Shown piece after piece: positions 4,098 through 35,646 of a stretch of 60,540 bases of DNA; position 1 is the stretch's first letter, and every line of letters starts with the position of its first letter. Source of the stretch: an uncultured bacterium. GTDB lineage: Bacteria > Verrucomicrobiota > Kiritimatiellia > RFP12 > UBA1067. The position numbers and the translations under genes were made by a program. Location of the stretch: NCBI GenBank assembly GCA_902799715.1, contig CADCBS010000004.1, forward strand, positions 1 to 60,540. The letters run 5' to 3'. The notes under the pieces are model-generated. The model did no database searches, had not been told where the DNA came from, and saw nothing but the letters and a program-made list of their open reading frames with translations.

Positions 4098-4258
4098 TTT
4101 GCCGGGGAAATTGGCCGTGTAGAACATGTAGAATGTGCATACCGGGCATATTGGATATTGGTATTGGCTATTGGCAACATTTCCACATTGGCAACATTCA
4201 TTCTGGTAGGGCGCGTTGTCCCAACGCGCCGCGGCGGCTTGGGACAAGCCGCCCTACC
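4098..4258 (+). repeat. Composite repeat element, copy 1. It has an AT-rich head (TTGCCG..TAGAAC/TAGAAT), an ATTGGN microsatellite, 2 x 17-nt units (4170-4203) and a 54-nt REP palindrome (4205-4258).
   Basis: Direct reading. Same architecture at 4318-4511, 5826-6087 and 31358-31503. Confidence 0.85.
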
Positions 4259-4317
4259 AATCCAACGGTTCAAATGCCCCTTGCTTCAAAATAAGATTAC
4301 GGTGCGTATGATTTTGT

Positions 4318-4511
4318 TCGCCGGGGACAATTTGCCGTGTAGAACATTTAGAATGTGCGTACCAAGCATATTGGAAATTGGTATTGGTATTGGCAACATT
4401 TCCACATTGGCAACATTTCCTCATTGGCAACATTTCCACATTGGCAACATTCATCCTGGTAGGGCGCGTTGTCCCAACGCGCCGCGGCGGCTTGGGACAA
4501 GCCGCCCTACC
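4318..4511 (+). repeat. Composite repeat element, copy 2, with 4 x 17-nt units ATTGGCAACATTTCCAC (4389-4456) and a 54-nt REP palindrome (4458-4511).
   Basis: Direct reading. The REP is identical to 4205-4258. Confidence 0.85.
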
Positions 4512-4539
4512 AATCATTCCATTGTCGATGGAAAGACCA

Positions 4540-5825: not shown

Positions 5826-6087
5826 GGTAGGGCGCGTTGGTGCGAATGATTTAATTTGCCGGGGAAATTGATCGTGTAGAATGTGCGTACCGCGCATATT
5901 GGACATTGGTATTGGTATTGGTATTGGCAACATTTCCACATTGGCAACATTTCCTCATTGGCAACCTTTCCACATTGGCAACATTTCCACATTGGCAACC
6001 TTTCTACATTGGCAACCTTTCCACATTGGCAACATTTCCTCATTGGCAACATTCATTCTGGTAGGGCGCGTTGTCCCAACGCGCCGC
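5826..6087 (+). repeat. Composite repeat element, copy 3. It has a truncated REP (5826-5840), the AT-rich head with TAGAAT, the ATTGGN microsatellite, 8 x 17-nt units (5923-6058) and a half REP (6060-6087).
   Basis: Units counted base by base: 5923, 5940, 5957, 5974, 5991, 6008, 6025, 6042. Confidence 0.85.
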
Positions 6088-6228
6088 AGCCGACGCGGGC
6101 TGTCGGATGTCGAATGCCGGATGTCGAAACCTTCAACCACGATTTCATCATACGCACGGCAACCCCATTTTGTCCATGTTGCGGCATTTTGACGCAGTGA
6201 GATTACGGTGCGTATGAAATCAAATCAC

Positions 6229-6264
6229 GGGGGAGGGGAGGGGGATTGCGGGGGAGGGGGATTG
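6229..6264 (+). repeat. G-tract cluster (G5,G4,G5,G5,G5) including a GGGGGAGGGGGATTG duplication. Potential G-quadruplex upstream of the 6392 promoter.
   Basis: Five runs of at least 4 G within 36 nt, read directly. Confidence 0.6.
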
Positions 6265-6267
6265 TCA

Positions 6268-6348
6268 GATTTCTAAAAAGACATCGAAAAATTTGTCAGA
6301 TTTCGAAAATGTTTGATATTGAACAGGCCGGAGAAGAAGCGGTATAAT
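6268..6348 (+). promoter_or_regulatory. AT-rich promoter cassette paralogous to 123-203: -35 TTGAAC (6319-6324), 18-nt spacer, -10 TATAAT (6343-6348).
   Basis: GATTTCTAAAA and TGTCAGATTTCGAAAATGTTTGATATTGAAC align with the 123-203 copy. AAGGAT SD before ATG 6392. Confidence 0.65.
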
Positions 6349-8438: not shown

Positions 8439-10615
8439 ACTTGAAAACACTCACACATACAGCGCGGCGCATCCTGCTTGCGGCTGCGGCCGCTGCGGCG
8501 GCGGCCGCGTCCGCGGGGACGGCTGACGTGAAAGTCTATCCGCAAAGCTTCGAGGCGGGCGGATGGGGGCTTGACGCGCAGTTCATGGACGTGATGGGCT
8601 CGCCGTACCTCATCGCGCACGGGCTCGGCGTGCGCGTCCTCGACGCGAAGGCGCGCGTGGCGTTTCCGGCCGCGGGCAGGTACCGCGTGTGGGTGCGCGC
8701 GAAAAACTGGGCCGACGGCGCGCCGGGCCGCTTCCGCGTACTGGTGGACGGCAAGCCGCTCGCCAAAGAGTTCGGCGCGGGGCCGCGCGAATGGACGTGG
8801 GAGGACGGCGGCACCGTAACGGTCGCGAAAGGCGAAGCGACGGTCGCGCTGCGCGACCTCACCGGCTTCGACGGGCGTTGCGCGGGAATAGTGTTCAAGG
8901 CGGACGGGGACGGTCTCCCTCCCGAAGGCCCGCTGAAGATCGACGAATCGAAGGCGGACGAGACGGTGAAGGCCGACTTCGTCGTGGTCGGCGGCGGAAT
9001 GCCGGGGACGTGCGCGGCCGTGGCGGCGGCGCGGCGCGGCATAAAGGTCGCGCTCGTGCAGGACCGCCCGGTGCTGGGCGGCAACGCTTCCGGCGAAATC
9101 CGCGTATACTGCGCGGGCGAGGCGAAGCACGACATCGTGCGCGAGCTGCGCGGCTTTTTCATGAACCGCGACGTGAACACCCCGCTTTGCGACACGCGCC
9201 GGATGCGGATCGTGCAAGACGAGAAGAACATCGACCTGCACCTCTCCACCCGCGCGTTCGGCGTGGAGATGAACGCGGACGGAACCATCGCCGCCGTGAA
9301 GGCGCTCGACCTGAAGACCAACCGCACGATCCGCTTCGAAGCCCCGCTTTTTTGCGATGCGACTGGCGACGGCTGGGTGGGATACTGGGCCGGGGCCGAA
9401 TGGCGCATGGGGCGCGAGGCGAAGAGCGAGTTCGGCGAATCGCGCGCGCCGGAAAAGCCCGACGGCGACACGCTGGGGGCGTCGATCATGTGGACGAGCG
9501 CCGACGCGAACGCGCCCGTACCGTTCTCCGCGCCCTGGGCGGAGCCGCACGCGCAGGGCGTGGTGGCGGTGAACGGCGAGTGGCGCTGGGAATACGGCAT
9601 CCACCGCGACATGATCGCGGAGGGCGAGGAGATTCGCGACAGGATGCTCCTGGCGATCTACGGCGCGTTCTCGCTTGCGAAGAAGCGTCCGGAAAACGCG
9701 AACAAGACGCTGAACTTCTGCCCATACCTGATCGGCAAGCGCGAGTCGCGCCGCCTGATGGGCGACTGGGTGCTTTCGCAGAAGGACGTCGCGGCCAACA
9801 CGCCGTTCAAAGACGCCATCGCGTCCGGCTCGTGGTCGATAGACCTGCACTACGACGGATACAGGCCCGGCGTGGACTTCCTGGCCAGGAACACCGCCGA
9901 CAGCTGCGGACGGTTCTGGATCCCCTACCGCTCCATCTACTCGCGCAACGTTGGCAACCTCTTCATGGCCGGGCGCTGCTTCAGCTGCACGCACGTGGGG
10001 CTGGGCGCGCCGCGCGTGATCTGCACGCTCTCGCAGATGGGCGTGGCGGCGGGCGAAGCGGCGGCGATGTGCCGCGAGCTGGGCGAAACCCCGCGCGGCA
10101 TCTGGAAAAACGGCCACGTGCGCGCGCTCCAGTTGCGGCTCGGCGGCGGCTTCCCCGGCGTGCCCGATCCCAAGACCGCGGGCTGGGCGATAGTCGACGA
10201 CGAATCCAAAGGCGTGACGTTCGGCAAAGGATGGAGAAAGTCCCGCAACCACAACGGCGGGCAGGTCGGCGGATGGACGCACTTTCCGAACAGAAAAGCC
10301 GCGAAGCACGAACCGGCGACATATCCGCTTCCCGTGAAGAAGGCCGGGCGCCACGTCCTCATGGGCAAGGTGCCGTATGCGTATGAAGCGAAGCCCGGCT
10401 CGGCGACTGCGTTCGAAATCGCCTCCGGCGGGAAAAAGACGCCGTTCACGGCCGACCAGGCGCAATCCACCGGACAGTGGGTGAAGCTCGGCGAGTTCGA
10501 CCTCGAACCGGGCGCGACGCTTACCATAATACCTGCGAAGTCGAAAGGCCATGTCGCCGCCGACGGCTTCGCGCTGATATCGCAAGAACAACAGAACAAG
10601 GAGAAAAAGCAATGA
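8435..10615 (+). CDS. Secreted FAD-dependent oxidoreductase (FAD_oxidored family) with N- and C-terminal carbohydrate-binding-like extensions.
   Basis: Dinucleotide-binding motif DFVVVGGGMPGTCAAVAAARRGIKVALVQDRPVLGGNASGE. Signal-like N-terminus. ATGA overlap with the upstream stop. Confidence 0.75.
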   Translation: MNLKTLTHTARRILLAAAAAAAAAASAGTADVKVYPQSFEAGGWGLDAQFMDVMGSPYLIAHGLGVRVLDAKARVAFPAAGRYRVWVRAKNWADGAPGRFRVLVDGKPLAKEFGAGPREWTWEDGGTVTVAKGEATVALRDLTGFDGRCAGIVFKADGDGLPPEGPLKIDESKADETVKADFVVVGGGMPGTCAAVAAARRGIKVALVQDRPVLGGNASGEIRVYCAGEAKHDIVRELRGFFMNRDVNTPLCDTRRMRIVQDEKNIDLHLSTRAFGVEMNADGTIAAVKALDLKTNRTIRFEAPLFCDATGDGWVGYWAGAEWRMGREAKSEFGESRAPEKPDGDTLGASIMWTSADANAPVPFSAPWAEPHAQGVVAVNGEWRWEYGIHRDMIAEGEEIRDRMLLAIYGAFSLAKKRPENANKTLNFCPYLIGKRESRRLMGDWVLSQKDVAANTPFKDAIASGSWSIDLHYDGYRPGVDFLARNTADSCGRFWIPYRSIYSRNVGNLFMAGRCFSCTHVGLGAPRVICTLSQMGVAAGEAAAMCRELGETPRGIWKNGHVRALQLRLGGGFPGVPDPKTAGWAIVDDESKGVTFGKGWRKSRNHNGGQVGGWTHFPNRKAAKHEPATYPLPVKKAGRHVLMGKVPYAYEAKPGSATAFEIASGGKKTPFTADQAQSTGQWVKLGEFDLEPGATLTIIPAKSKGHVAADGFALISQEQQNKEKKQ

Positions 10616-13205
10616 ACATCCCCCCCCCCCCCCCCCCGCAAGGCGCACCCCGCACCGCATAGCCGCGGCGTTTTCGCTTGCCCTCGCCTTCGCCGCCAAT
10701 GCGGCGACGCCAATCTACTGGAAAGGCGGCAGCGGAACTGAAGCCGAGCCGCGGGATGTCTACAGCAAGGACAACTGGACGGGCAACAGTTCATATTCCG
10801 GCGGTTCCATCGGTCAAAACCCGACTGGTCAGCACAACTTCCACTTCAAGGCAGATTCGCTCACGTATCTGACCAACTGCAGCCCCTCTGCGGTTTCGGG
10901 CAACATTTGCGAGCAGATGATGTTTCATACCGGCGACTACTCGCTCTGCGGTTTCTTCACAACAAAATCAGCGGTTAATGTCGGAGCCGATGCGGGAGAC
11001 GAAGCTATCGTCACAGTCAACGGCGGCAGCGTTACCGTAGGCGCCGAACTCTATGTGGGCGGTACCAGCACGGCGGGCGGTACTGGAACGCTGACGATAA
11101 ACGGCGGCAACGTCGTGGTGGCGTCAGGCAAAAACACGCTCGCGGGCTTTGCCAGCGGCTCCACGGGCACGATAAACCTCAACGGCGGCGTTCTAACGAC
11201 GATGCGCATCGCAAAGGACAAAGGAAAGGGCTACCTCAACTTCAACGGCGGAACACTCCAGGCGAACGCCGACCATAACGAATACATAAAGAGCGGCATC
11301 ACGGTCACCGTTCTTGCGGGCGGCGGCACGATCGACTGCAACGGCAAGAACATCGCGATTGACGCGCAATGGAGCACCGAGAGCACCGGCGGCATGAACT
11401 TCACGGGCGGCAACGGCAACACGATTTCGATTCCCAATAAAAGAGCCATCACATACCCCGGCATTACATCCATTACGCCTGGTACGCGGCTCGCCGTTTC
11501 CAATTTGAGTTACTCCAAGAATCTCATTTCGAATGGAATCGTCGTCGCGGGCGTCCCGGCGGTTGGCGATGTGATCTTCACCTGCACGAGAGGCGAAGGA
11601 AATACGCTTGATGGCGTCAGCCTCGATAACGTGAAGTGCCCCATCGCGCCGGGAACCACGTTCGCCCTTGACGACAGCACGACGAACATCGTCGTCACGG
11701 CCGTCGGAACGCCGCTTGAGAACTACTGGACTGGCAACGCCGGCGACGGCAACCTCAGCAACCCCGCAAACTGGGCGAACGGTGTGCCGGGGAGCGGCGA
11801 AAGCGCCAACATCATCTGTGCAGCCCCTGCTACGCTGACGAAGGGAGACACGTTCGCGCCGGCTTCCATCACGTTCCTCGAAGGTTGCGCGGCGGTGACG
11901 ATCGACGGCGGCACGGCGTTCGAGAACATCACGGAGATAGTCAGCCTTTCTTCGTCTTCGCATACGATTAATGTTCCTGTCCGCTTCACGGGCGACATTC
12001 AGGTCAAGCAGCCGGCGATGGCGGAGACGAGCGATCTCGCGAAGCCGCATGTAACGTTCGCGGGCGGCGCGTATGCCGCGGCTGGATATTCTATCGAAAG
12101 CGGCAATTCCGCCGCAGTCTATTCTCGCTGCATCTTCGGCAAGTACTACCTTGGCAGCACATCGGCGAGCCGCTGGACGGCACAGTATCAGGGCGGCAGC
12201 AAGCGCGTTTGCGTTGCGGACGGCTCCTCGCTCTATGTTCCGTACGCAGGGAATGTCTCGGAACTCTATGTCGCTGCCGGCGCGAAGGTGGACATTGGTG
12301 ACATGAACACAAGCGGTCGTCCTTCCTACCGGGTTTACGGCGAAATGGCCGTCACCAACTTGACGGCGACAGGCTCAACTGCAATATATGCGACATATGG
12401 TCAGAGTTTGGACACCCCGGGTGTGTTCAAGTTCGGCACGGTCACGAATGAGATGTCGAACACCAAAGGCGTACTGTTCTATTTTGCCGATGGAAATGTG
12501 GCGGGCAGCCATGTGTTCTACATTGGCGAAGGCGGTGTGAACTACAAGACTGCGACAACTACAATATATATCGTCGGGCGCGACAGCGAAGGGAACAGCG
12601 AGACGATTCGTCCGTGGTATTCCGACTTCACCATAGGGGCGCGCCCTGGCGATGACAACCCAGCCGGACTCAGGTTCTTCCGCGATGTCGAGTTCTGCAC
12701 GGACGACGAGAACGGCACAGGGCGGACGATAACGCTGGAAGCGAGAACGCAGGTACAGGCGAATAAGACAGCGGCAATCATGGTCTCCGGCTCGGGAACG
12801 TTGAAGGTGACGCAGCCAGATGAAAATGGCGCCCAGCCGACCGTTACGCTGGCGGGCACGGCGACGCTGGAGTACACGGCGAAGACCGCAGACCTCGGCG
12901 CGGCGTCGATCGCGCTCGGCGCGGGAACGAAATTCGCGTTCCAGAACTCCGGCAGCACGCTCGCGCTTCCTTCGCCCATAACATTGCCGGCGGAAGGCGC
13001 GGCTACGCTACGCATCGACGGCGACAGGCTCAACGCCGGCAACACGCATACGATCGCGACCGGCGTCGAGGCCGACGCCGCCGACCACCTGACCGTCGAT
13101 CCCGAGAGCGCGGCGCTTGACGGACGCAAGGCCACCCTTGCTGTCAAAGACGGCAACCTCGTCCTCGAATTCGAATCCAGGGGCCTGACCATAATCATCA
13201 AGTAG
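10612..13205 (+). CDS. Adhesin-like secreted beta-helix protein with autotransporter-associated beta-strand (PATR-like) repeats. The reading frame is interrupted at the C18 tract (phase-variable OFF state or homopolymer assembly error).
   Basis: ATG 10612 has an AAGGAG SD (10598-10603) and an ATGA overlap with the upstream gene. The frame open from 10638 encodes signal peptide ARRTPHRIAAAFSLALAFAANA and continues into the 762-aa ORF (10917..13205). One extra C restores a single ORF. Confidence 0.7.
10620..10637 (+). repeat. Homopolymeric C18 tract (simple sequence contingency repeat).
   Basis: Counted directly: the final c of line 10561, plus 10, plus 7. Confidence 0.95.
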
Positions 13206-13277: not shown

Positions 13278-13286
13278 TGGTAAACT
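13278..13286 (+). promoter_or_regulatory. Extended -10 TGgTAAACT located 9 nt upstream of ATG 13296 (predicted leaderless or near-leaderless transcript).
   Basis: Motif read directly. No SD before the ATG. Confidence 0.4.
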
Positions 13287-23365: not shown

Positions 23366-25108
23366 ATGGACGGGACGAAAGCAACGATCAAGCCAGCGCT
23401 GGCGGCCGTCGCGGCCGCGGTTTGCGCGGCAGGCGCGGCGTGCGCGGCGCAGGGGAAGCCAAAGGCCGTTGTGTTCATGCTCGACGGATGCCGGGCGGAC
23501 GCGATAGAAAACGCGGCGGCGCCGAACATGCGGAAACTGATGGACGGAAAGTGGCAGGAAGGCTACAGATGCGCGTGGTCGCTGTCGGCCCAGACCGTCC
23601 CCGACGCGATATCCTCCAGCGCGCCGAACCATGTCGCCATCGCGACTGGAGTGACCACGGCCAAGAACTGCGTGACGAACCTCGGCGTGCAGATGTCGCA
23701 GTGCGACTACAAGAAGTATCCCAGCTTGCTCGTGCGGGTGGCGGAGGCCGACCCTTCGGTCAGGGCGCTCTTCATGTACGGCTGGCCCGCCGACGAAAGG
23801 ATATGCCCGCACCCGCGCGTCGAGGCGGTTCCGGGATCGGCCGTCGCGGGCAAAGGCCTGATCGCCCGCGCAGGCGTCCCATGCGCCAAGGACGTCGCGA
23901 ACGGCGCCGAGTACGCGAAAAGGCTTTCCACGGAAAAAGCCCCCGACGCCGCGATGATCTACCTCGACCTGCCGGACCACGCCGGGCACGGCTACTTCGG
24001 CGGCGAAGGCGCGGGCTTCTATCCGTACAGGACGTCGTATCTCAAATCGATCGCGATATGCGACGCGATAATCGGGAAATGCATGGACGCCATAGCGGCG
24101 CGCCCGTCGTTCAAGGACGAAGACTGGATGATCGTGATAACCGCCGACCACGGCGGATATTCAAACACGCACGGACTCCTCGGCGGGCACGCGACATCGA
24201 TTCCGCTCATAGTGTCGTCCCGCGGCGTCAAGCAAGGGCGCATCCCCGGAACGCCCAAGAACTACGACGCGGCGCCGACGGTCCTGCGCCATTTCGGAAT
24301 CGACGTCTCGGGATTCGATCTCGACGGAAAGGCCGTTGGCGGCGAAGTCGCGCAGGAGCGGACGCGCCCGCTGGCGGAAGGGCTTGCGGCGTATTTCACC
24401 TTCGACGGGAAAAAGCCGTCGAACGAGGCCGCCGCCGGACCGTCCGCCGTCCTTTGCGGAAGAACGAAATCCGGCGCCGCCGGGGGCATCCTCGAAAAAT
24501 GCCTTATCGTGGCGAACGGCGCGAAGGGCGCGCCGGGAGGCGTCCTGCTGAAAGGCTCGGAGGCGCTGAAATTCGAAAACGGAGCGGACTTCGCGATGAC
24601 GATGTGGGTCAGGATGGACGCGCCGCAGAAGGCCGACGCGCTTATATTCGGAAACAAAGACTGGAGTTCGGGCAACAACCCCGGCATCGCGCTTTGCGCA
24701 TCGAAATGCACCGAGAACGTGAAGAACCGGGGCGTGGTTTTCAACTGCGTCACGCCCTGGGGACGGAAGCGGATCGACATCGGGACGTACGACGTCGAAT
24801 ACGGCAAGTGGGTGTTCTACGCGATCGTGCGCGGATCCGACGGCGTGGCGAGGCTCTACCAGGGCGCTCCCGACGGCACGCTCTACTTCATCTCCGAAGA
24901 CGTCCGGGACATCAAGCTCGAAACGTCGCTGCCCTTCCACATCGGCCAGGACGGGACCGGCAGGTACGGCGCGACCTTCAACGGCGCCGTGGACGACTTC
25001 GCGCTCTGGACGAGGGCGATTTCGCACGGCGACGTGAGGCGCATCTACGAAGCCGGCCGCAAGGGGCTGCCGCTCGGCGACCTGCTGAAAGGCTCGCCGC
25101 TGCCGTAA
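23366..25108 (+). CDS. Alkaline-phosphatase-superfamily enzyme (type I phosphodiesterase/nucleotide pyrophosphatase-like) fused to a LamG/concanavalin-like domain.
   Basis: Signal peptide, then KAVVFMLDGCRADAIENAAAPN, SSSAPNHVAIATG and ITADHGG motifs. C-terminal LamG-like segment (DFAMTMWVR..ALIFGNKDW..FNGAVDDFALW). GAAGGGGA SD. Confidence 0.65.
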   Translation: MDGTKATIKPALAAVAAAVCAAGAACAAQGKPKAVVFMLDGCRADAIENAAAPNMRKLMDGKWQEGYRCAWSLSAQTVPDAISSSAPNHVAIATGVTTAKNCVTNLGVQMSQCDYKKYPSLLVRVAEADPSVRALFMYGWPADERICPHPRVEAVPGSAVAGKGLIARAGVPCAKDVANGAEYAKRLSTEKAPDAAMIYLDLPDHAGHGYFGGEGAGFYPYRTSYLKSIAICDAIIGKCMDAIAARPSFKDEDWMIVITADHGGYSNTHGLLGGHATSIPLIVSSRGVKQGRIPGTPKNYDAAPTVLRHFGIDVSGFDLDGKAVGGEVAQERTRPLAEGLAAYFTFDGKKPSNEAAAGPSAVLCGRTKSGAAGGILEKCLIVANGAKGAPGGVLLKGSEALKFENGADFAMTMWVRMDAPQKADALIFGNKDWSSGNNPGIALCASKCTENVKNRGVVFNCVTPWGRKRIDIGTYDVEYGKWVFYAIVRGSDGVARLYQGAPDGTLYFISEDVRDIKLETSLPFHIGQDGTGRYGATFNGAVDDFALWTRAISHGDVRRIYEAGRKGLPLGDLLKGSPLP

Positions 25109-25236: not shown

Positions 25237-25254
25237 CCACGCAAATTTCTGCAC

Positions 25255-25291
25255 GGTCGGCTACTCGGCTTCAAGCGCCGAGAGGCCGACC
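25255..25291 (-). terminator. Long GC hairpin immediately 3' of the giant gene stop codon (GGTCGGC-ta-CTCGGC...GCCGAG-ag-GCCGACC).
   Basis: Complementary arms read directly. There is no clear U-tract, so intrinsic-terminator status is uncertain. Confidence 0.4.
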
Positions 25292-25292
25292 C

Positions 25293-28200
25293 TTATGCGA
25301 AAAAACTTGCGCTCTCGCCTTCGCCGAGATTCCCGGCCAGGACAACCGGCCCGGCGCCGGGGGCGACGGACACGCCATCGCCGACCGGCACCCAATCGCG
25401 GCCAGACCTGCGCTCGAGATACGCCGTCACCGCAACGCCTTCAAGTTCCGCCGGGACGGACAGGTTCTTGGCGCAAACCGCGAACCCGCCACTGGACGGG
25501 ACCTGCGCAAGCGCAGGCTCGCACAGCACGAGAGACGTCGCGTCCGTGGGACGCAGGCCCAAGCAGTACGACTTCCACAGCGGAAGCCCGTTCGCGCCCG
25601 TGGATGCAAGCGTACCTTCGCCGCACGTCTCCAGCCCGGCTTCCCCGGTCAGCCAGTCGCCCGGCACTTTCACGTCGAAATCGCCGCCTGCGTCTGCGTC
25701 GGCTATGCGGATGGTGAAGTACGAGGGCGCGACGTACACGAGATTGCCATCCTCGTCGATACTGAACTTGTCGCTTTCGCCTTCCGGGAAGGAGAACTTC
25801 GCGAGGTCTTCAACCTGGAGGCCCGCCCCGGATATGAGCGTGTAGGTCTTGCCGGGGGCGAAGACCGAACCGGACGCAAGCGTGACCGCAACAGTTCCTT
25901 CTTCGGGAAGCGTCAGCGTCTTGTTGGAAGCGATGGCAAGCGTCGTGTCGGTTTTCCCGAGCGTGAACTTCAGCGTCGTGTCGGCGGCGAGCGTCAGGTT
26001 GCCCCCCATCGTGACGGTGCCAGTCTGCGGGAGGGCGAGCGTCGTCCCCGTCGCGAACGAGATCGCGCCTGTCGTGATCCGCTTCCCGGCGTTGATCGCC
26101 AAGGTCGCCGTGTCCTTCACGTTCACCGCGCCGGAGAACGGCGCTCTGTTGCCGTTGTAGCTATCCGTGGTGTAGTGGTTCGCCACGACCGTGCCCTTGC
26201 CGGTGATGTTCACCGGCGTACCGTTGTCGTAGATGCCGGAGTTGAACGTTATCGTATGCCCTTTGCTGTCGCCCCAGCCAGTCGTGTTGAACGTGATATA
26301 GTCGACCTCCGTGCGGAACACTATCGGCAAGGCGATCTCGAAGTCGTTGGTGTACGCCTGGAATTCCGACTTCAAGAGGTTATACGATCTTGCCCAGAAG
26401 CAGCCGGTCGAGTTGCCGGCGATGCCTTGCGGCCCTATGATCCACTTCTGGTACGTCCTGTCCGAAGAAGTGTACAACGAATTGGCGCCGTTGTTCCTGA
26501 GCCCCCCGGCCACGATCACGCCGCCGCCGACAGAGTAGTTGTTGTTGTACTGCGGGTCGAGATCGCCGGACTTGAGGGTTATGAGGCCCGTCACGATGAA
26601 GGCGCCGCCCGTCTCGACCTTGTATACGATATACACACCCGATCCTCCGGTAAACTCAAGGTTGCCGTCCAAAGTGACCGTGGAGTTGGCGCCCACCGCC
26701 ACTTTCGACGTGTCGCTGAACGACGAGGCCGTAAGCGAGCCCGTAAACGTGACGACTCCCGAACCCATCGTAACCGCGCCGAATGCGACGTTGATGTCGG
26801 CATTGACGGTCTTCGCCGAACCGACGCCAGAGAAGTCGAGCGCGTCGCCGGCGCGCGGAACAAGTCCGTTCTTCCAGTTCCCCGGCGTGGAGAAGTTCGC
26901 GTCCATGCCGCCCATCCACACGCCGTAGGGATATGCTTCGGCGCGGTTGCCGATGCAGAGCTTGACGCTTGCGCCGTCGCGGAATATCCAGGCGTCTTTG
27001 CCGCCGGAAACCGCCGAGGCGTCGAGCGTGAAGTTCGAGAGGACGGTGTCCGCCAACGCCGAGGATGCGGTGAAGAGCGTGTATTCGCCGTCCGCGAGAG
27101 CGGAGTCGCCCGCCGCCTTCAGCGTCACCGTGCCGGGACCCGTGAACGCGAGCGTTCCGAAGAGCGCCGCGTCGCCGGAAGCGACAGGCGTCACTTCAAG
27201 CGTCGTCCCCGCCGTGAATGTGGTCTTGCCCGTCGTAAACTTCATGCCGGGGTTGACGGCCAAGGTCGCCGTGTCGTTCACCTTAACTTCGCCGGAATAA
27301 GGGTTCTTGCCGCCGAACGTCTTTGTGACATGGTTGACGACGACCTTGCCCGGTCCTGTAATGTAGACGGGAACGCCCTTGTCGGAGAATCCGGCGTCGA
27401 GCGTAATCGTGTGACCCAAACCGTCAAGACCGGTCGTGTTGTAGGTCCAGCTTTTCGCGTTCTCGCGCAGAACCGTCCAGAGCGAAACCGTGAAATCGTT
27501 CGTCCAAGGCTGGAACTCGGGATTGACCTTGCTGTTGGCGTTGACCCAAAGGCCGTTGTTCTCCGTGGTTCCCGTAATGCCGCCGGGACCGATGACCCAC
27601 TTATGCGTCACAGAATTGTCGTCGAGCGTTGCATAGATATTCTTGGCGCTGTCATTGACGACGCTTCCCGCCACGACCAGACCCGTTCCGGGGCTTGCCT
27701 GCGGACGCAACGCACAGTTCGATCCGGCCGCAAGGCCGAGCTTGCCCGTCACGATGAACTTGCCGCCGGCGTTCACCTTGTAGACGGCGTAATGGTCGGC
27801 GCCGTCGACATAAGTCAGCATCAAGTCGCCGTCGACCGTGACGGTCGAGTTCGCGCCGACCGCCACTTTCTCCATTTCGCTGAACGATGCCGCCTTCATC
27901 TTGTCCCCTGTGAAGGTGACGATGCCCGAACCCATCGTGACCGCGCCGAGCGCGGCGTCGATGTCGCCTTCGATAGTAGCCGCAGCAGTTACGCCGGAGA
28001 AGTCTACGGCCTCTCCCGCGACGGGAGCCGTTTCGTCAAGCCAGTTGGCGTCCGTAGACATCTTGCCGTCGCCCGCGAATCCGGTCCATGCGTTCCCGGG
28101 GAGGTTGCCGACATTGAGAAGAAGAACGCCATCTTTGACCATCCACGAATACACTTCGCCGCCTGTCGACGGAACGAGTCTGTCCTGCACGTCTGCGGCC

Positions 28201-31200
28201 GCCACATTGCCGGAGAATATCCTGTAGACGCCCTTCGCGAACGCCGAGCCGCCCTTCAAGAGCGTGACGTCGCCGGACGCGGGAAGCGCTATGGACGTTA
28301 TCGCGACGGGCGCGCCGCCGGCCACATCAAGCGTCGTGCCGCCCGCAAACGAAAGCGGACGCGACAGCGTCGCCACGCTCTCGCCGAGCGCGAGCGTGCC
28401 CTCGTTCACGTTCAGAGCGCCGGTGGCGGTCTGGTTGCGTTGGATGTTGAGGATGCCCGAACCTTTTTTGACGATCGCGCCCTCGCCCTGCGGGTCAGCC
28501 TGCAAATTGCAGGTGAAGGCCTGCGTATCGATCGTGAGCCCGCCCGCGCCGATTGTCATCGGCGTCGAGGACGGCCCGAAGTTCTGATGCGTTCCTATCG
28601 ACCAGCTGTCGGCGGCTGAGAGGACGAGCGTCGAATTGTCGAAACGCGCCGAGTTCGCAGGCCTGTCGTGAAAGACCTTGAAGCACTTCGCCGTGATTAC
28701 GCTGTCGACGAAATCTGCCGTGTAGAAGCCCGCGGTGTTCGCGCCTACTACATTGTGCCCGAGGTTGATTATACCCGTTCCGACATCGAGGACGGAGTTC
28801 GTCATCGCAAGCGAGAACTTGGGTTCGAGCGGGTTCCTGTTGCCTGAGTCGTAGCCGATATGGAGATTCTTGTTGTTCGCGACCCTGAACGTGGAATTGC
28901 TGAACATCATGTACATTTCAGGCGTATCGGCCTCAGTCGTGTTGTCGCGGCACGTCATTATGTATGTTTCGCCGCCGGTCTGGAAAAGGCCGCCGTCCGT
29001 GACATTGAACCGGAGCGTCCCACGACGCGAGTTCTGCATGAACCAGTTGTTGCCGTTTTCGTCCGAAACCATCTGGCCGCCGAAGATATTGACCGTTGTG
29101 TCCGAATCGACGTTCGCGTCGTACGAGGCATTCCACGTATAGCGGGCCGACGACCTAAACACGGCGTCTTTCGCAATCGTAAGGACGGCAGGAGCCGCGG
29201 CTCCGTTAAAACCGGGATTCGCCGTAGTATGGAATGTACCGTTCGCGAGAGTGACGTCCATGCCGGGAGCCATGTAGCGGTTCGCGGCGACGGAAAAATC
29301 GGTGGAAAGCGTCTCGCCGTCGCAGTCGAGCGCGACCGGCTTTGAAGGATCCGTGCCGAGCGTCAGTTTCGCGGGAGCGACCGTCGCGCCGGAAAGGACC
29401 TTGAGCGTCCCTTCCGTGACTGTCGTCTGCTCCGTGCGGCTTGCGCCAAGGGCGAGCGTGCCCGCGCCCTTCTTCTCGATCGCGCCGGCCATGGGGGCCG
29501 TAACGGTCGCCGTGACGCCCTGCGCGACCGAAACCGACGGGACGGTGAGGGTGGCAGCGCCGTCCACGGTCGCGTTGTCGCGAAATACGATTTCGTTCAC
29601 AGCCGCGTTCGCAGCGAGCGTCGCCGCCGCGCCGTCCGTCGCGAAGATGGCGTTGTTGCCATCCTCCCAGTCTGCGGCGGCAGAATTCCTGTCCCATGCA
29701 CCCGTATCGTCCCAGCTTGTCCCGCTGCCATTCCAAGTGTAGTCGTCGGCAGTGATCGTGAGCGTGAGCGCACCGTTCACGACCGCGACCTCATGGGGAA
29801 GCGCGACAGCGCCGAATGTCGGGTTGACATTGAACTTTGCCGCGTCATCCGTCTCGAAAAGTGCAAATGTCGTGCCTGCGGCGGGTGCGGCGGTGAAGTT
29901 GAGGTTGATTGTGGCAGGATTGGCCGCCGTCGCAGTGATGTTCGTCGTCGTGACGGAAATCGCGTCTGTCTCCGTGGCGTTGGCGTCAAGACTGAGGATG
30001 CCGCCAGCGCCAAGAGTGAACGCATCGAGCGTATAGGCCGCAACCGCGCCGTCGCGCGTAAAATAGTCGGTCGTGCCGCCGGAAGCGAGCGTCAAGTCAG
30101 GAGAATCGTCGGTTATCGTCGCGCCTGCGAGTGTCAGGACGCCGCCGTCAGTCGCGGAAAGCACCACTGACGAAGCGGAGAGCGCGCCAGAAAGGGTCAG
30201 GTTGCCGCCCTCGGCGCGGAACGCGGATGCCGCGTAATCCTTTGTTGACGCCCATGTTCCGTTCGATACGACGAGCGGGCCCGTGAACGTCATCTTCTTC
30301 GTGGGCGACGACCCGGTGATGTTATTCCACGTTATAGAGCCGGCGCCGGTCTTCGTGATGCCGCCTGCACCCTTGAGCGCGGAGGAGTTGTCGTCGGTTG
30401 TCAGCGATACGCCGGAGGGGATGTCGATTGTCAGCCCGCCGGACTGTATCTCGTAGATGTCGGTCGTGACGGCGGTGTTCTGCCCGATGAAGCTTTTGTT
30501 GCCGCTGGCACCGGCGTAATGGATCGTCGCGCCGTTGAACTTCACCGAGGGCTGCGGATACAAGTAGGCGTAAATCTGGTGGTACAGTGTCAGGTCTGCG
30601 CCTGAGCCAAAGGTGATCGTGTTTGCGCTGCTCGCCGGAGTGTTGAGATATGACGTCGTCTGCCCGATTGTGATCTGATTCGCAGTAATCTTGGAATCCG
30701 CAACAGACGCCGTCATTTTGAGGGTCTTGTGCTTCTTGCTGTTAGCCTGTTCCATGCCACCGAACGTGATGTTCTTGCCGCTCGGAACCGCCATCTCCGA
30801 GTTGCTCGCCATCGTGAAGCTGATGACTACATCGCGATTGTCCGTGGTGGAACTTGCCCTGGCTGTGAACTTGATGTCCGTAGAAGAGCAAATGAACTTT
30901 CCGTTGTTGAGCGAAACGCTCGTCGTGCCGCCGTAAGTTCCCTCGTTGCTGGCGCGCTTTCCGAAGTAGGGCGTAGACGTTGAGGTGTAGTTTATGGTCG
31001 CGCCGTTTATATTCAGGGTTGTCGTGCCGGCGAGTCCCCACCATCCGCTTGTCTGGTTCACGGTCAGACCGGAGCCGAGCGTCGTCGTGGCATCAGCCAA
31101 TGTCTGGTTGGCGGAAACGTCCAACGTGCCGTTGATCCACGTCTTGCCTTTCAGTCCGTCCGCAGTAGTAATTGACCGTGTGCCGCCGTTAAGGTCTTCG

Positions 31201-31295
31201 TCGGCGACGGCAGTTGTTGCAGCGAAGAGCGCGAAAGCCAACGCGACAGCCGCCTTTGTCGCCGCCGCGCTTATTCTTTTCATTGTCGTTTTCAT
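25293..31295 (-). CDS. Giant (2000 aa) secreted beta-helix surface protein/adhesin-like with PATR-type repeats and an internally duplicated ~389-aa module.
   Basis: Signal peptide MKTTMKRISAAATKAAVALAFALFAATTAVA. Repeats of type KKGAGTLALG...EGTLKV. AGGA SD upstream. Confidence 0.9.
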   Translation of the reverse strand: MKTTMKRISAAATKAAVALAFALFAATTAVADEDLNGGTRSITTADGLKGKTWINGTLDVSANQTLADATTTLGSGLTVNQTSGWWGLAGTTTLNINGATINYTSTSTPYFGKRASNEGTYGGTTSVSLNNGKFICSSTDIKFTARASSTTDNRDVVISFTMASNSEMAVPSGKNITFGGMEQANSKKHKTLKMTASVADSKITANQITIGQTTSYLNTPASSANTITFGSGADLTLYHQIYAYLYPQPSVKFNGATIHYAGASGNKSFIGQNTAVTTDIYEIQSGGLTIDIPSGVSLTTDDNSSALKGAGGITKTGAGSITWNNITGSSPTKKMTFTGPLVVSNGTWASTKDYAASAFRAEGGNLTLSGALSASSVVLSATDGGVLTLAGATITDDSPDLTLASGGTTDYFTRDGAVAAYTLDAFTLGAGGILSLDANATETDAISVTTTNITATAANPATINLNFTAAPAAGTTFALFETDDAAKFNVNPTFGAVALPHEVAVVNGALTLTITADDYTWNGSGTSWDDTGAWDRNSAAADWEDGNNAIFATDGAAATLAANAAVNEIVFRDNATVDGAATLTVPSVSVAQGVTATVTAPMAGAIEKKGAGTLALGASRTEQTTVTEGTLKVLSGATVAPAKLTLGTDPSKPVALDCDGETLSTDFSVAANRYMAPGMDVTLANGTFHTTANPGFNGAAAPAVLTIAKDAVFRSSARYTWNASYDANVDSDTTVNIFGGQMVSDENGNNWFMQNSRRGTLRFNVTDGGLFQTGGETYIMTCRDNTTEADTPEMYMMFSNSTFRVANNKNLHIGYDSGNRNPLEPKFSLAMTNSVLDVGTGIINLGHNVVGANTAGFYTADFVDSVITAKCFKVFHDRPANSARFDNSTLVLSAADSWSIGTHQNFGPSSTPMTIGAGGLTIDTQAFTCNLQADPQGEGAIVKKGSGILNIQRNQTATGALNVNEGTLALGESVATLSRPLSFAGGTTLDVAGGAPVAITSIALPASGDVTLLKGGSAFAKGVYRIFSGNVAAADVQDRLVPSTGGEVYSWMVKDGVLLLNVGNLPGNAWTGFAGDGKMSTDANWLDETAPVAGEAVDFSGVTAAATIEGDIDAALGAVTMGSGIVTFTGDKMKAASFSEMEKVAVGANSTVTVDGDLMLTYVDGADHYAVYKVNAGGKFIVTGKLGLAAGSNCALRPQASPGTGLVVAGSVVNDSAKNIYATLDDNSVTHKWVIGPGGITGTTENNGLWVNANSKVNPEFQPWTNDFTVSLWTVLRENAKSWTYNTTGLDGLGHTITLDAGFSDKGVPVYITGPGKVVVNHVTKTFGGKNPYSGEVKVNDTATLAVNPGMKFTTGKTTFTAGTTLEVTPVASGDAALFGTLAFTGPGTVTLKAAGDSALADGEYTLFTASSALADTVLSNFTLDASAVSGGKDAWIFRDGASVKLCIGNRAEAYPYGVWMGGMDANFSTPGNWKNGLVPRAGDALDFSGVGSAKTVNADINVAFGAVTMGSGVVTFTGSLTASSFSDTSKVAVGANSTVTLDGNLEFTGGSGVYIVYKVETGGAFIVTGLITLKSGDLDPQYNNNYSVGGGVIVAGGLRNNGANSLYTSSDRTYQKWIIGPQGIAGNSTGCFWARSYNLLKSEFQAYTNDFEIALPIVFRTEVDYITFNTTGWGDSKGHTITFNSGIYDNGTPVNITGKGTVVANHYTTDSYNGNRAPFSGAVNVKDTATLAINAGKRITTGAISFATGTTLALPQTGTVTMGGNLTLAADTTLKFTLGKTDTTLAIASNKTLTLPEEGTVAVTLASGSVFAPGKTYTLISGAGLQVEDLAKFSFPEGESDKFSIDEDGNLVYVAPSYFTIRIADADAGGDFDVKVPGDWLTGEAGLETCGEGTLASTGANGLPLWKSYCLGLRPTDATSLVLCEPALAQVPSSGGFAVCAKNLSVPAELEGVAVTAYLERRSGRDWVPVGDGVSVAPGAGPVVLAGNLGEGESASFFA

Positions 31296-31357
31296 TTTTG
31301 TTTTTCCTTTCGGGTTAGTAGTTAGTCAATGGAAAGTGTTTGGGTGTTTGAGTTGTT

Positions 31358-31503
31358 GAATGTTGCCAGTGTGGAAGTGTTGCCAGTACCAGTGTTGCCA
31401 ATTTCCAATTGAGAATTGGTATTGGAATTGGAATTGGATATTTTCACATTGGCAACATTTTACAAGTGTTGGGGCCGGTAGGGCGCGATGACCCCATCGC
31501 GCC
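31358..31503. repeat. Mirrored (back-to-back) copy of the composite repeat. Degenerate 17-nt units point toward the giant gene (31358-31410) and toward the + strand (31441-31470), centred on CCAATTgagAATTGG. A REP variant lies at 31477-31503.
   Basis: Direct reading on both strands. The REP variant GGCGCGATG-accc-CATCGCGCC carries a compensatory T>A / A>T pair relative to GGCGCGTTG-tcc-CAACGCGCC. Confidence 0.75.
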
Positions 31504-31591
31504 GCAAAACAAAAACACCCCGCGCCATCCCGCGTGAAACGCGCAGGAAGGCGTCTGCAACGCGCCGGGAGCGCGTTCTTGCTATGAACGT

Positions 31592-31608
31592 GGGGGGGGG
31601 GGGGGGGG
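31592..31608 (+). repeat. Homopolymeric G17 tract (C17 on the minus strand) in the divergent intergenic region.
   Basis: Counted directly (9 + 8 G). Confidence 0.95.
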
Positions 31609-31825
31609 TAAAATGCAAAGCCTCGCCTGCGCGCCGTCCGGCGCGCTCTCAAGGGCGTTCCATGTGATTTTCTCTCTGTCATGGTATCGTCTTCAAGGCT
31701 CTGGCGCATTGCGGAAAGACACCCCCGCAAACGTGCCGATAGTATGCAAAATCCCCCGGCGCGAAGTCAAGCGCGAAAATGCCGCCAACGCGCGGCTTGA
31801 AACTGTGGCGCGCGGCAATGCGATT

Positions 31826-31834
31826 TGCTATACT
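31826..31834 (+). promoter_or_regulatory. Extended -10 TGcTATACT, candidate promoter of the lipoprotein/ABC operon.
   Basis: Motif read directly, about 55 nt upstream of ATG 31889, which has a GGAGA SD. Confidence 0.4.
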
Positions 31835-31888
31835 CGCGCGGCGACCGGACGGCAGGACCTGCGCGTCCGGCGCTGGAGACGCACACCA

Positions 31889-32629
31889 ATGGATAAAACT
31901 GCATTTCACGTTCTCGCCGCGCTGGCGGCGCTTCCGCTTGCGGGATGCTTCACCTTGACCGAAACCCCCGCGCCGAAAATCGAAATCGCACAGGCCGCGG
32001 AATCGGCCCCCGCCGTGAACATAGGCGGATACGCGGTCGAAGTGGTGAACTACATCCCAGTGTACGGCTGGGAGACGCGATACGCCTCCGGATGGGGATA
32101 CGGCGGCCGCCGCGGGCGCTACCGCCACCCGCACTGGCAGACCGTCGCCACCGAAACCTACATCCCGCAGGCGGGCGTCACCGATTTCTACCTGCGGCGC
32201 GCAGCGCACCTTCTCGAGGACAGCGGGCTGATAGTGGCCACGACAAACGCGCAGTACGAAATCTCCGGCGAGTTCACCGGGCCGTTCACGCCGGAAGGGA
32301 CGCGGTGGCGGATGGCGGCCATCGACATCGGCTCGCTTTTCTTCGCGCTCTACGACGCTTCGGAGTGGCAGCTTGAAGTGCGCGTCCGCGACACGTCCAC
32401 GGGGCGCGTCGTATTCTCGCGCACGCTGCGCCAGGAATACGAATGCTGCGCCTTTTCGCCGTTCTGGCTGTTCGGGCTTGCGATGCACGACGGCATAAAC
32501 GGCGACTGGCAGAAGTCGTGGTGCCTTCAGGTTCTGACCGACCGCTCCGTGGCGGAAATCTCGAAGTTCCTGCAATCCGCGCAAAAGGGAGCAACGAAGG
32601 AAACGGCACGGGGGGCGAAGGCGGAATGA
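31889..32629 (+). CDS. Lipoprotein of unknown function (first gene of the ABC operon).
   Basis: MDKTAFHVLAALAALPLAGC lipobox. ATGA overlap with the downstream ABC ATPase. The track ORF start at 31613 was rejected. Confidence 0.7.
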   Translation: MDKTAFHVLAALAALPLAGCFTLTETPAPKIEIAQAAESAPAVNIGGYAVEVVNYIPVYGWETRYASGWGYGGRRGRYRHPHWQTVATETYIPQAGVTDFYLRRAAHLLEDSGLIVATTNAQYEISGEFTGPFTPEGTRWRMAAIDIGSLFFALYDASEWQLEVRVRDTSTGRVVFSRTLRQEYECCAFSPFWLFGLAMHDGINGDWQKSWCLQVLTDRSVAEISKFLQSAQKGATKETARGAKAE

Positions 32630-35616: not shown

Positions 35617-35646
35617 ATTTTACCCCCGCGGCGGTGCGGATGTCAA
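35617..35646 (-). promoter_or_regulatory. Consensus promoter: -35 TTGACA (35646..35641), 18-nt spacer, -10 TAAAAT (35622..35617). It ends 6 nt before the ftsB-like ATG (leaderless).
   Basis: Reverse complement read directly. No SD is present. Confidence 0.6.

Follow-up and report, generated by a model that had tools for sequence, protein, structure and literature searches.

The G17 tract and its surroundings

The DNA analysed here, which we call the window, is a chromosomal stretch of 60,540 bases with a GC content of 64.8%, carrying secA, hisA/hisB, proA/proB, an RNase R gene and a tRNA-Arg. Its gene content also includes PATR-type repeat proteins, a sulfatase-like gene and GH106, a set that may point to the PVC group. 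Matches to the proteins flanking the locus come solely from rumen metagenome assemblies and from "uncultured bacterium RUG14632", the GTDB representative; in JGI metagenomes a relative at 42% identity was the only match.

Two divergent genes are separated by non-coding DNA that contains a run of 17 G on the plus strand (C17 on the minus strand). A recount bore out the earlier note on its place: the run occupies positions 31592-31608, 297 nt from the start of a giant open reading frame (31295, minus strand) and 281 nt from the ATG of a lipoprotein gene (31889), within the non-coding region between them. It is flanked by ATGAACGT (31584..31591, plus strand) on its 5' side and by TAAAATGC on its 3' side. 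All features of the locus are collected in Table 1.

The giant protein matches the beta-strand repeat model TIGR02601 with 21.4 bits, above the cut-off of 19.85, and Pfam PATR with 18.7 bits, under the cut-off of that model; an adhesin function is what we infer for it. In the operon on the other side, ABC_tran and ABC-3 are matched, and AztA/AztB-like matches fall below the cut-off. The lipoprotein itself belongs to only two clusters among 5.8 billion proteins.

Table 1. Features of the locus and of the companion tract, in window coordinates
Feature	Position	Strand	Remarks
Strain-variable block, 6.55 kb	25238..31788		Terminator hairpin, giant ORF, repeat element, GC-rich hairpins, G tract
Giant gene, 2000-aa secreted repeat protein	25293..31295	-	Signal-peptide-like N-terminus
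Member of a repeated intergenic element family	31357..31506		TGGCAACA 17-mers, ATTGG hexamers, REP-like hairpin
Best minus-strand -10-like site, TAAAAT, facing giant gene	31457..31462	-	9.9 bits, rank 28 in window
TTGCTA, alternative -35-like hexamer	31579..31584	+	Usable only with short tract
ATGAAC / TGAACG, -35-like hexamers	within ATGAACGT, 31584..31591 (hexamers 31584-31590)	+	Found by consensus scan and organism-derived model
G17 tract	31592..31608	+
Candidate P2, extended -10-like GGG-TAAAAT	31606..31614	+	Fits TGnTAnAAT; directly adjoins tract; start predicted near 31621
TTGACT-18-CATACT, upstream of tract, facing giant gene	31741..31770	-	Only match of the generic scan; 7.3 bits in local model
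P1, promoter of the operon, TGGCGC-N14-TGCTATACT	31806..31834	+	Architecture of tRNA-Arg promoter
246-aa lipoprotein, first gene of Zn/Mn-type ABC operon	31889..32629	+	Lipobox LAGC; gene calls agree in 10 contigs
C18, in-ORF frame switch of related surface protein	10620..10637	+	Comparison case

The window contains just two homopolymers of 8 nt or longer, G17 and a C18 tract (10620-10637); the next longest run has 7 nt, and runs of 8-16 nt are absent from the whole window. A first-order Markov estimate predicts about 1e-5 G runs of 17 nt or more, which places G17 far beyond chance. The repeat is pure and uninterrupted, and far above the length at which slippage becomes frequent. An assembly, dark-cycle or sequencing artefact was ruled out, the tract being internal and having unique flanks in three assemblies (the window; ERZ27280661, contigs L001/L010; ERZ1029114, contig L021). 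Rfam searches of 30800-32400 and of the whole window for RNA families or riboswitches returned only one spurious miRNA match and one tRNA. There is no intrinsic terminator at the tract, where folding gives REP-like hairpins only.

Tract length across assemblies

All complete copies of the tract (3/3: the window, ERZ27280661 and ERZ1029114) are G17, including that of the diverged strain represented by L021. Another contig (L025), which is identical to the window over 1910/1910 bases, nevertheless begins with at least 20 G, followed by TAAAT and not TAAAAT; since this variant is located at a contig end, it may be a sequencing or PCR error. The contig L011 (8799/8799 bases identical to the window) ends inside the G tract, and L022 begins 34 nt to the right of it. 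These data are suggestive of tract instability, short of proof.

The companion C18 tract is preceded by ATGAACAT and directly follows ATG AAC AT. The gene that it interrupts comes after an FAD-oxidoreductase gene and has its start codon at 10612, with AAGGAG upstream; its product is weakly related to the giant protein. Assemblies (L012-L016) differ in the length of the C tract (16, 18, at least 22, or 24 nt), and in two contigs the sequence breaks off within it. With C16 (L014) the gene encodes an 863-aa protein with a signal peptide, and with C18, as in the window, the frame is broken; the C16 and C18 sequences have no mismatches over 1.5 kb on each side. The C tract thus behaves as a true switch that varies in a clonal background, and very long G/C tracts do serve this organism as contingency switches. 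Of the two tracts, G17 seems the less variable, and may be either less mutable or held at 17 by selection.

The rejected frame-switch reading of ATG 31584

The earlier note pointed out that at G17 the ATG at 31584 opens a 27-codon ORF, and that at G18 it enters a stop-free frame that runs into the lipoprotein gene. This arithmetic is correct (the G18 frame has 348 codons; at G16 or G19 a stop is reached at once), and the NCBI annotation of the source contig gives the lipoprotein a 338-aa form starting from ATG 31613. A translational frame switch, in which a gene starts from ATG 31584 and is fused to the lipoprotein at G18, is nevertheless close to refuted. Whichever frame is read, the GC content at third codon positions in 31470-31888 stays at 0.53-0.67, as is usual for non-coding DNA here, versus 0.79-0.88 in neighbouring real genes, and ATG 31584 lacks a ribosome-binding site. 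The lipoprotein has signals of its own, namely GGAG, a lipobox signal peptide and a promoter conserved in the sister species. We reject the coding switch on these three grounds: third-position composition, the missing ribosome-binding site and the independent lipoprotein start. Further arguments against it come from comparison. The same 246-aa lipoprotein is encoded in strains without any of the tract region, and 246 aa is the length called in most contigs with gene calls examined; the longer calls, 317 or 338 aa in L021 and L025, arise where the stop-free frame upstream lets the ORF be extended. This extension is rich in arginine and would leave the signal peptide of the lipoprotein buried, and the sister species has a TGA in that frame ahead of its own G tract. 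A real coding sequence with a start that carries a ribosome-binding site, as expected for an in-ORF switch, is present at C18 (10620) and absent at G17. The G tract would therefore act, if at all, on transcription and not on translation.

The earlier note had also seen in ATGAAC at 31584 an echo of the same letters at 10612. The identity is real; the implied Met-Asn reading does not carry over, because the hexamer at 10612 belongs to a true start codon with AAGGAG upstream, and that at 31584 is better read as a -35-like element. ATGAAC-N-T precedes both tracts on the plus strand, one of them C and the other G. The chance of such identity is about 1e-3; we found no common cause, and it stays unexplained.

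Promoter pattern of the organism

Promoters read from the window follow an extended -10 pattern, TGnTAnAAT. The motif TGnTAnnnT with at least 5/6 matches to TATAAT occurs eight times, seven of them just upstream of gene starts, and of the 15 sites of the looser motif G[GC]TAnA[AC]T, 13 are placed likewise (in both cases as we read the flanking sequence). Most local promoters have a -35 of TTG- or TGG-type at 17-18 nt; the one at 6343 reads TTGAAC-18-TATAAT. At least four motif sites are followed 6-9 nt on by an independently found ORF start (45515, 35610, 52197 and 57770). Start codons so close to the -10 suggest that leaderless mRNAs may be common here. TGnTAnAAT sites with a start codon 6-9 nt downstream are located at 13281, 35622(-), 45503, 52211(-) and 57783(-), and include those of secA and a DivIC-like gene. 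To score 121,000 positions, we based a position-weight model (the organism-derived model) on 12 local promoters.

Candidate rightward promoter P2

The 3' edge of the G tract forms, together with the nucleotides that follow it, an extended -10-like element, the core of a candidate promoter that we call P2. Its 9-mer, GGGTAAAAT, recurs unchanged in the promoter at 35622, 6 nt ahead of the start codon of the DivIC-like gene. In the organism-derived model GGG-TAAAAT ranks 12th among the 121,000 positions and is the best site outside the training set; when the twin at 35622 is left out of training, it ranks 18th, and the twin itself is still 11th. In L021 the element reads GGG-TAGAAT, which also fits the local pattern, TAGAAT being the commonest local hexamer. 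This change is a single SNP beside the tract in a strain diverged by about 2%, and it falls at the least constrained position of the hexamer.

The distance from this element to the -35-like hexamers upstream depends on the number of G residues. A consensus scan, which accepts spacers of 15-19 nt, places ATGAAC or TGAACG at a permitted distance from TAAAAT for G13-18 (at G17 the hexamers are 18-19 nt apart) and TTGCTA for G8-12 (17 nt at G10); from G19 up none qualifies. The length model, which uses spacers of 16-18 nt, gives totals of 14.2-14.5 bits at G9-11, where TTGCTA scores, and at G14-17, where ATGAAC/TGAACG holds. For G18-19 the total drops to 6.4 bits. The consensus scan found no minus-strand promoter with the tract as its spacer at any length from 6 to 25. 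Because of these register scores and the absence of a minus-strand promoter across the tract, we tentatively read the tract as the spacer of P2; G17 would then stand at the upper limit of the permissive lengths. The fit has its weak points, as the -35 part contributes only 2.4 bits and the T at -15 is replaced by G. No start codon or ORF follows P2.

Giant gene and the strain-variable block

Two contigs (L019 and L020) lack positions 25238-31788 altogether, and their copies of the operon are about 98% identical to that of the window. At their junction, position 31789 comes immediately after the sulfatase-like gene, with its stop at 25108, and a REP-like unit. In L021 the tract region is followed by a 38-nt copy of the 3' end of the sulfatase gene and two REP units, and then by the lipoprotein promoter. 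These arrangements point to a block that has been gained and lost by recombination between direct repeats; as it stands, the 6.55-kb presence/absence block is bounded by REP-like units. Contigs of other assemblies break at 31780, 31796 and 31846, which we attribute to the polymorphism of the block and a nearby SNP.

The boundary of the block lies 18 nt upstream of the TTGACT hexamer of the distal minus-strand site (31770..31741). In L022 the -10-like hexamer of this site reads CATAAT. The pair TTGAAG-18-GAAAAT, proposed in the earlier note as a weak minus-strand promoter, is indeed present (31696..31667), but it scores only 4.7 bits as a promoter in the organism-derived model. If the better site at 31462 is used, the tract is located about 145 nt upstream of the transcription start of the giant gene. 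In the GTDB representative RUG14632 (L017, CADCGZ010000180.1, 330-1620) an IS3-family element, with genes orfA (121 aa) and orfB (306 aa), is inserted some 50 nt ahead of the ATG of the giant gene and severs that gene from the tract region; this contig stops short of the tract. Upstream of the three more distant giant-gene homologues L018, L026 and L027 there is no homopolymer.

Operon promoter P1 and the sister species

The promoter of the operon, P1, is outside the 6.55-kb block, and it is kept both in the block-less strains and in a sister species at about 82% identity. In L021, P2 and P1 are separated by about 215 nt made up of a gene fragment and REP hairpins, which could halt read-through from P2.

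The sister species (L023, about 82% identity) has no giant gene; it has a G13 run on the same strand upstream of the same operon (L023 positions 780-792), 20 nt past the stop of the sulfatase gene and 24 nt ahead of the conserved TTGAAAC-P1 block, that is, at roughly -69 to -81 from the predicted start. G13 and G17 have unrelated flanks, and no -10-like hexamer comes after G13. L024, a second contig from this species, begins 24 nt past the tract position. At about two tracts per 60 kb, the chance of finding one in this 150-nt gap is perhaps 1-5%, and these odds favour either a link of the tract with the upstream region of the operon or a local hot spot.

Interpretation of the G17 tract

The tract lies in non-coding DNA, adjoins a promoter-like element and is part of a strain-variable block. 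We put at about 40% the probability that it acts as a length-variable, slippage-prone spacer of the rightward promoter P2. P2 would then consist of ATGAAC/TGAACG, a spacer of GT and the G run in which the run takes up nearly all the length, GGG-TAAAAT, and a start at about 31621. Slippage, by gain or loss of G, would reset the distance between -35 and -10: G14-17 would hold the -35-like hexamer in register, G17 being the longest such length, G18-19 would lose the register, and at far shorter lengths (G9-11) TTGCTA would take over as the -35. Transcripts from P2 would head for the lipoprotein/ABC operon, which has the fixed promoter P1 besides, and would collide head-on with any giant-gene transcript that starts from the distal minus-strand site at 31770..31741. 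We infer, rather than show, the activity of P2, its control by tract length and the identity of the gene served. Besides the promoter scores, the rarity of such runs, the switching of C18, the L025, L011 and L022 contig ends and the G13 upstream of the same operon in the sister species speak for the spacer reading. Several observations count against it: the tract is inherited as part of the giant-gene block rather than of the operon; the operon already has a strong promoter in P1; all complete copies are G17; no ORF follows P2; the REP hairpins of L021 could stop read-through; and G13 of the sister species has no -10-like hexamer behind it. The caution of the earlier note that sequence alone cannot settle the target gene stands in part.

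There is a serious rival, although we think it rather unlikely: the tract may be a relic or a neutral by-product, left by spacer slippage in the promoter of a gene that was lost as the block moved, or by drift, with no present fitness effect. What makes it serious is that no ORF follows P2, that P1 is present, being enough for the operon in block-less strains, and that REP units intervene in L021. The identical length in three assemblies would fit it, as would the patchwork of REP-like hairpins and rearrangements all around. However, runs of 17 nt or more are not expected to last unselected, and the absence of runs of 8-16 nt speaks against a general drift to long tracts. The neighbouring -10-like hexamer stays consensus across strains, and a second poly-G is found at the equivalent site in the sister species. 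That second tract occurs where there is no giant gene, which also weighs on an explanation that we consider unlikely, in which C17 tunes the giant gene. It could do so as an element of a long 5' leader, with transcription from the distal minus-strand sites at 31770..31741 or 31696..31667 (a leader of about 440 nt if the former fires), or as a spacer that sets the distance from an upstream site to the proximal promoter near 31462. Inheritance of the tract together with the giant gene on the 6.55-kb block argues for such control, the more so as the block, reaching from 18 nt upstream of TTGACT to the terminator hairpin past the stop codon, has the appearance of an entire transcription unit, and the change of CATACT to CATAAT in L022 moves the distal site towards consensus. 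C18 acts as the switch of a related surface protein, the upstream region is a hot spot of structural change (for example, the IS3-family insertion in RUG14632), the minus-strand RNA is C-rich near the tract (C/G of about 2.4), and uspA1 offers a precedent (PMC7302503). On the other hand, the distal sites score poorly (7.3 and 4.7 bits), the best site, at 31462, lies between the tract and the gene, the minus strand has no -10-like element next to the tract, and the three distant homologues show no upstream homopolymer.

A combination of the two promoter readings can also be envisaged, and we regard it as quite improbable. If P2 fired head-on against the site at 31770..31741, the predicted transcripts would overlap by about 110 nt, and a single poly-G could toggle both read-through into the ABC operon and silencing of the giant protein: with P2 on, read-through would be accompanied by silencing of the giant gene through transcriptional interference, and with P2 off the outcome would be the reverse. 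In a related and likewise improbable variant, C17 in the leader of the giant gene would serve as a Rho-loading site with a strength set by its length. To our knowledge, no antisense or convergent switch that is gated by a repeat and carried on a block gained and lost by strains has been described.

Comparison with known systems

The closest comparisons for the spacer reading are porA of N. meningitidis and tp0126 of T. pallidum, where a poly-G between -35 and -10 alters spacing and promoter strength by slippage; the poly-G tracts of tpr genes are also among them (PMC7864442). The likeness, as predicted from sequence, is that the G run adjoins a -10-like hexamer, with a -35-like hexamer beyond it. 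The tract described here differs in being 17 to at least 20 nt long, versus about 8-12 nt, in forming nearly the whole spacer and in the weak match of its -35, and its host is an uncultured rumen bacterium with 65% GC and not a pathogen. The vlp genes of M. hyorhinis, with a poly-A promoter spacer, follow the same principle. In Bordetella fim2/fim3, a poly-C of about 13-15 nt in the promoters of surface structures sets the register between an upstream element and the -10, and switching depends on BvgA binding sites. The GC-rich genome and the long C/G run are shared with our case; no activator site was identified at G17.

In M. catarrhalis uspA1, a G(n) tract outside the ORF and upstream of a large surface adhesin gene grades transcription (PMC7302503). 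This matches the alternative in which C17 affects the giant gene, with the difference that the tract here is 297 nt from the ATG and that the best minus-strand candidate promoter is located between tract and gene. The uspA1 tract sits shortly downstream of a mapped transcription start. In Campylobacter, intergenic G/C tracts are a recognised minority class (PMC8355987). The in-ORF switches of that genus, and C18 in the window, would share with G17 the mutational mechanism and targets among secreted repeat proteins, whereas G17 is outside any ORF. In Akkermansia, long mononucleotide repeats, of 8-10 nt, have been described (PMC3048395).

The mechanism proposed for G17, a transcriptional simple-sequence switch, probably belongs to a known kind, with a host that is new and a tract that is unusually long; in practical terms the gain is modest. 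Work on repeat-driven phase variation has dealt almost entirely with animal pathogens. Here, two very long G/C tracts (17 to 24 nt) are found in a GC-rich uncultured rumen commensal known only from metagenomes. Confirmation of G17 would mean that rumen bacteria share the same bet-hedging for surface proteins; it would also call for caution with metagenome assemblies, since contigs break at the tracts and at the block junction.

Other repeats and hairpins in the window

The intergenic element next to the giant gene (31357-31506) has kin at about 4140-4260, 4370-4512 and 5900-6090. These composite elements have the order (ATTGGT)n, tandem 17-mers ATTGGCAACATTTCCAC (2, 3.7 and 7.7 copies) and REP-like hairpins GGCGCGTTGTCCCAACGCGCC and GCGGCGGCTTGGGACAAGCCGCC; the copy number varies by site and probably by strain too. 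Apart from the SNP beside the tract, the differences that set the variant strain L021 (ERZ1029114), and also L022, apart from the window cluster in two short hairpins, 31533-31545 and 31722-31740. A hairpin with a GAA loop is kept despite joint base changes in its stem (CGCGT-GAA-ACGCG versus GCGCA-GAA-TGCGC), a pattern like that left by template switching or by conversion among REP-like copies. Finally, the AT-rich intergenic region upstream of the promoter at 6343 contains a G-rich repeat, GGGGGAGGGGAGGGGGATTGCGGGGGAGGGGGATTG (6220-6262), that could form a G-quadruplex.
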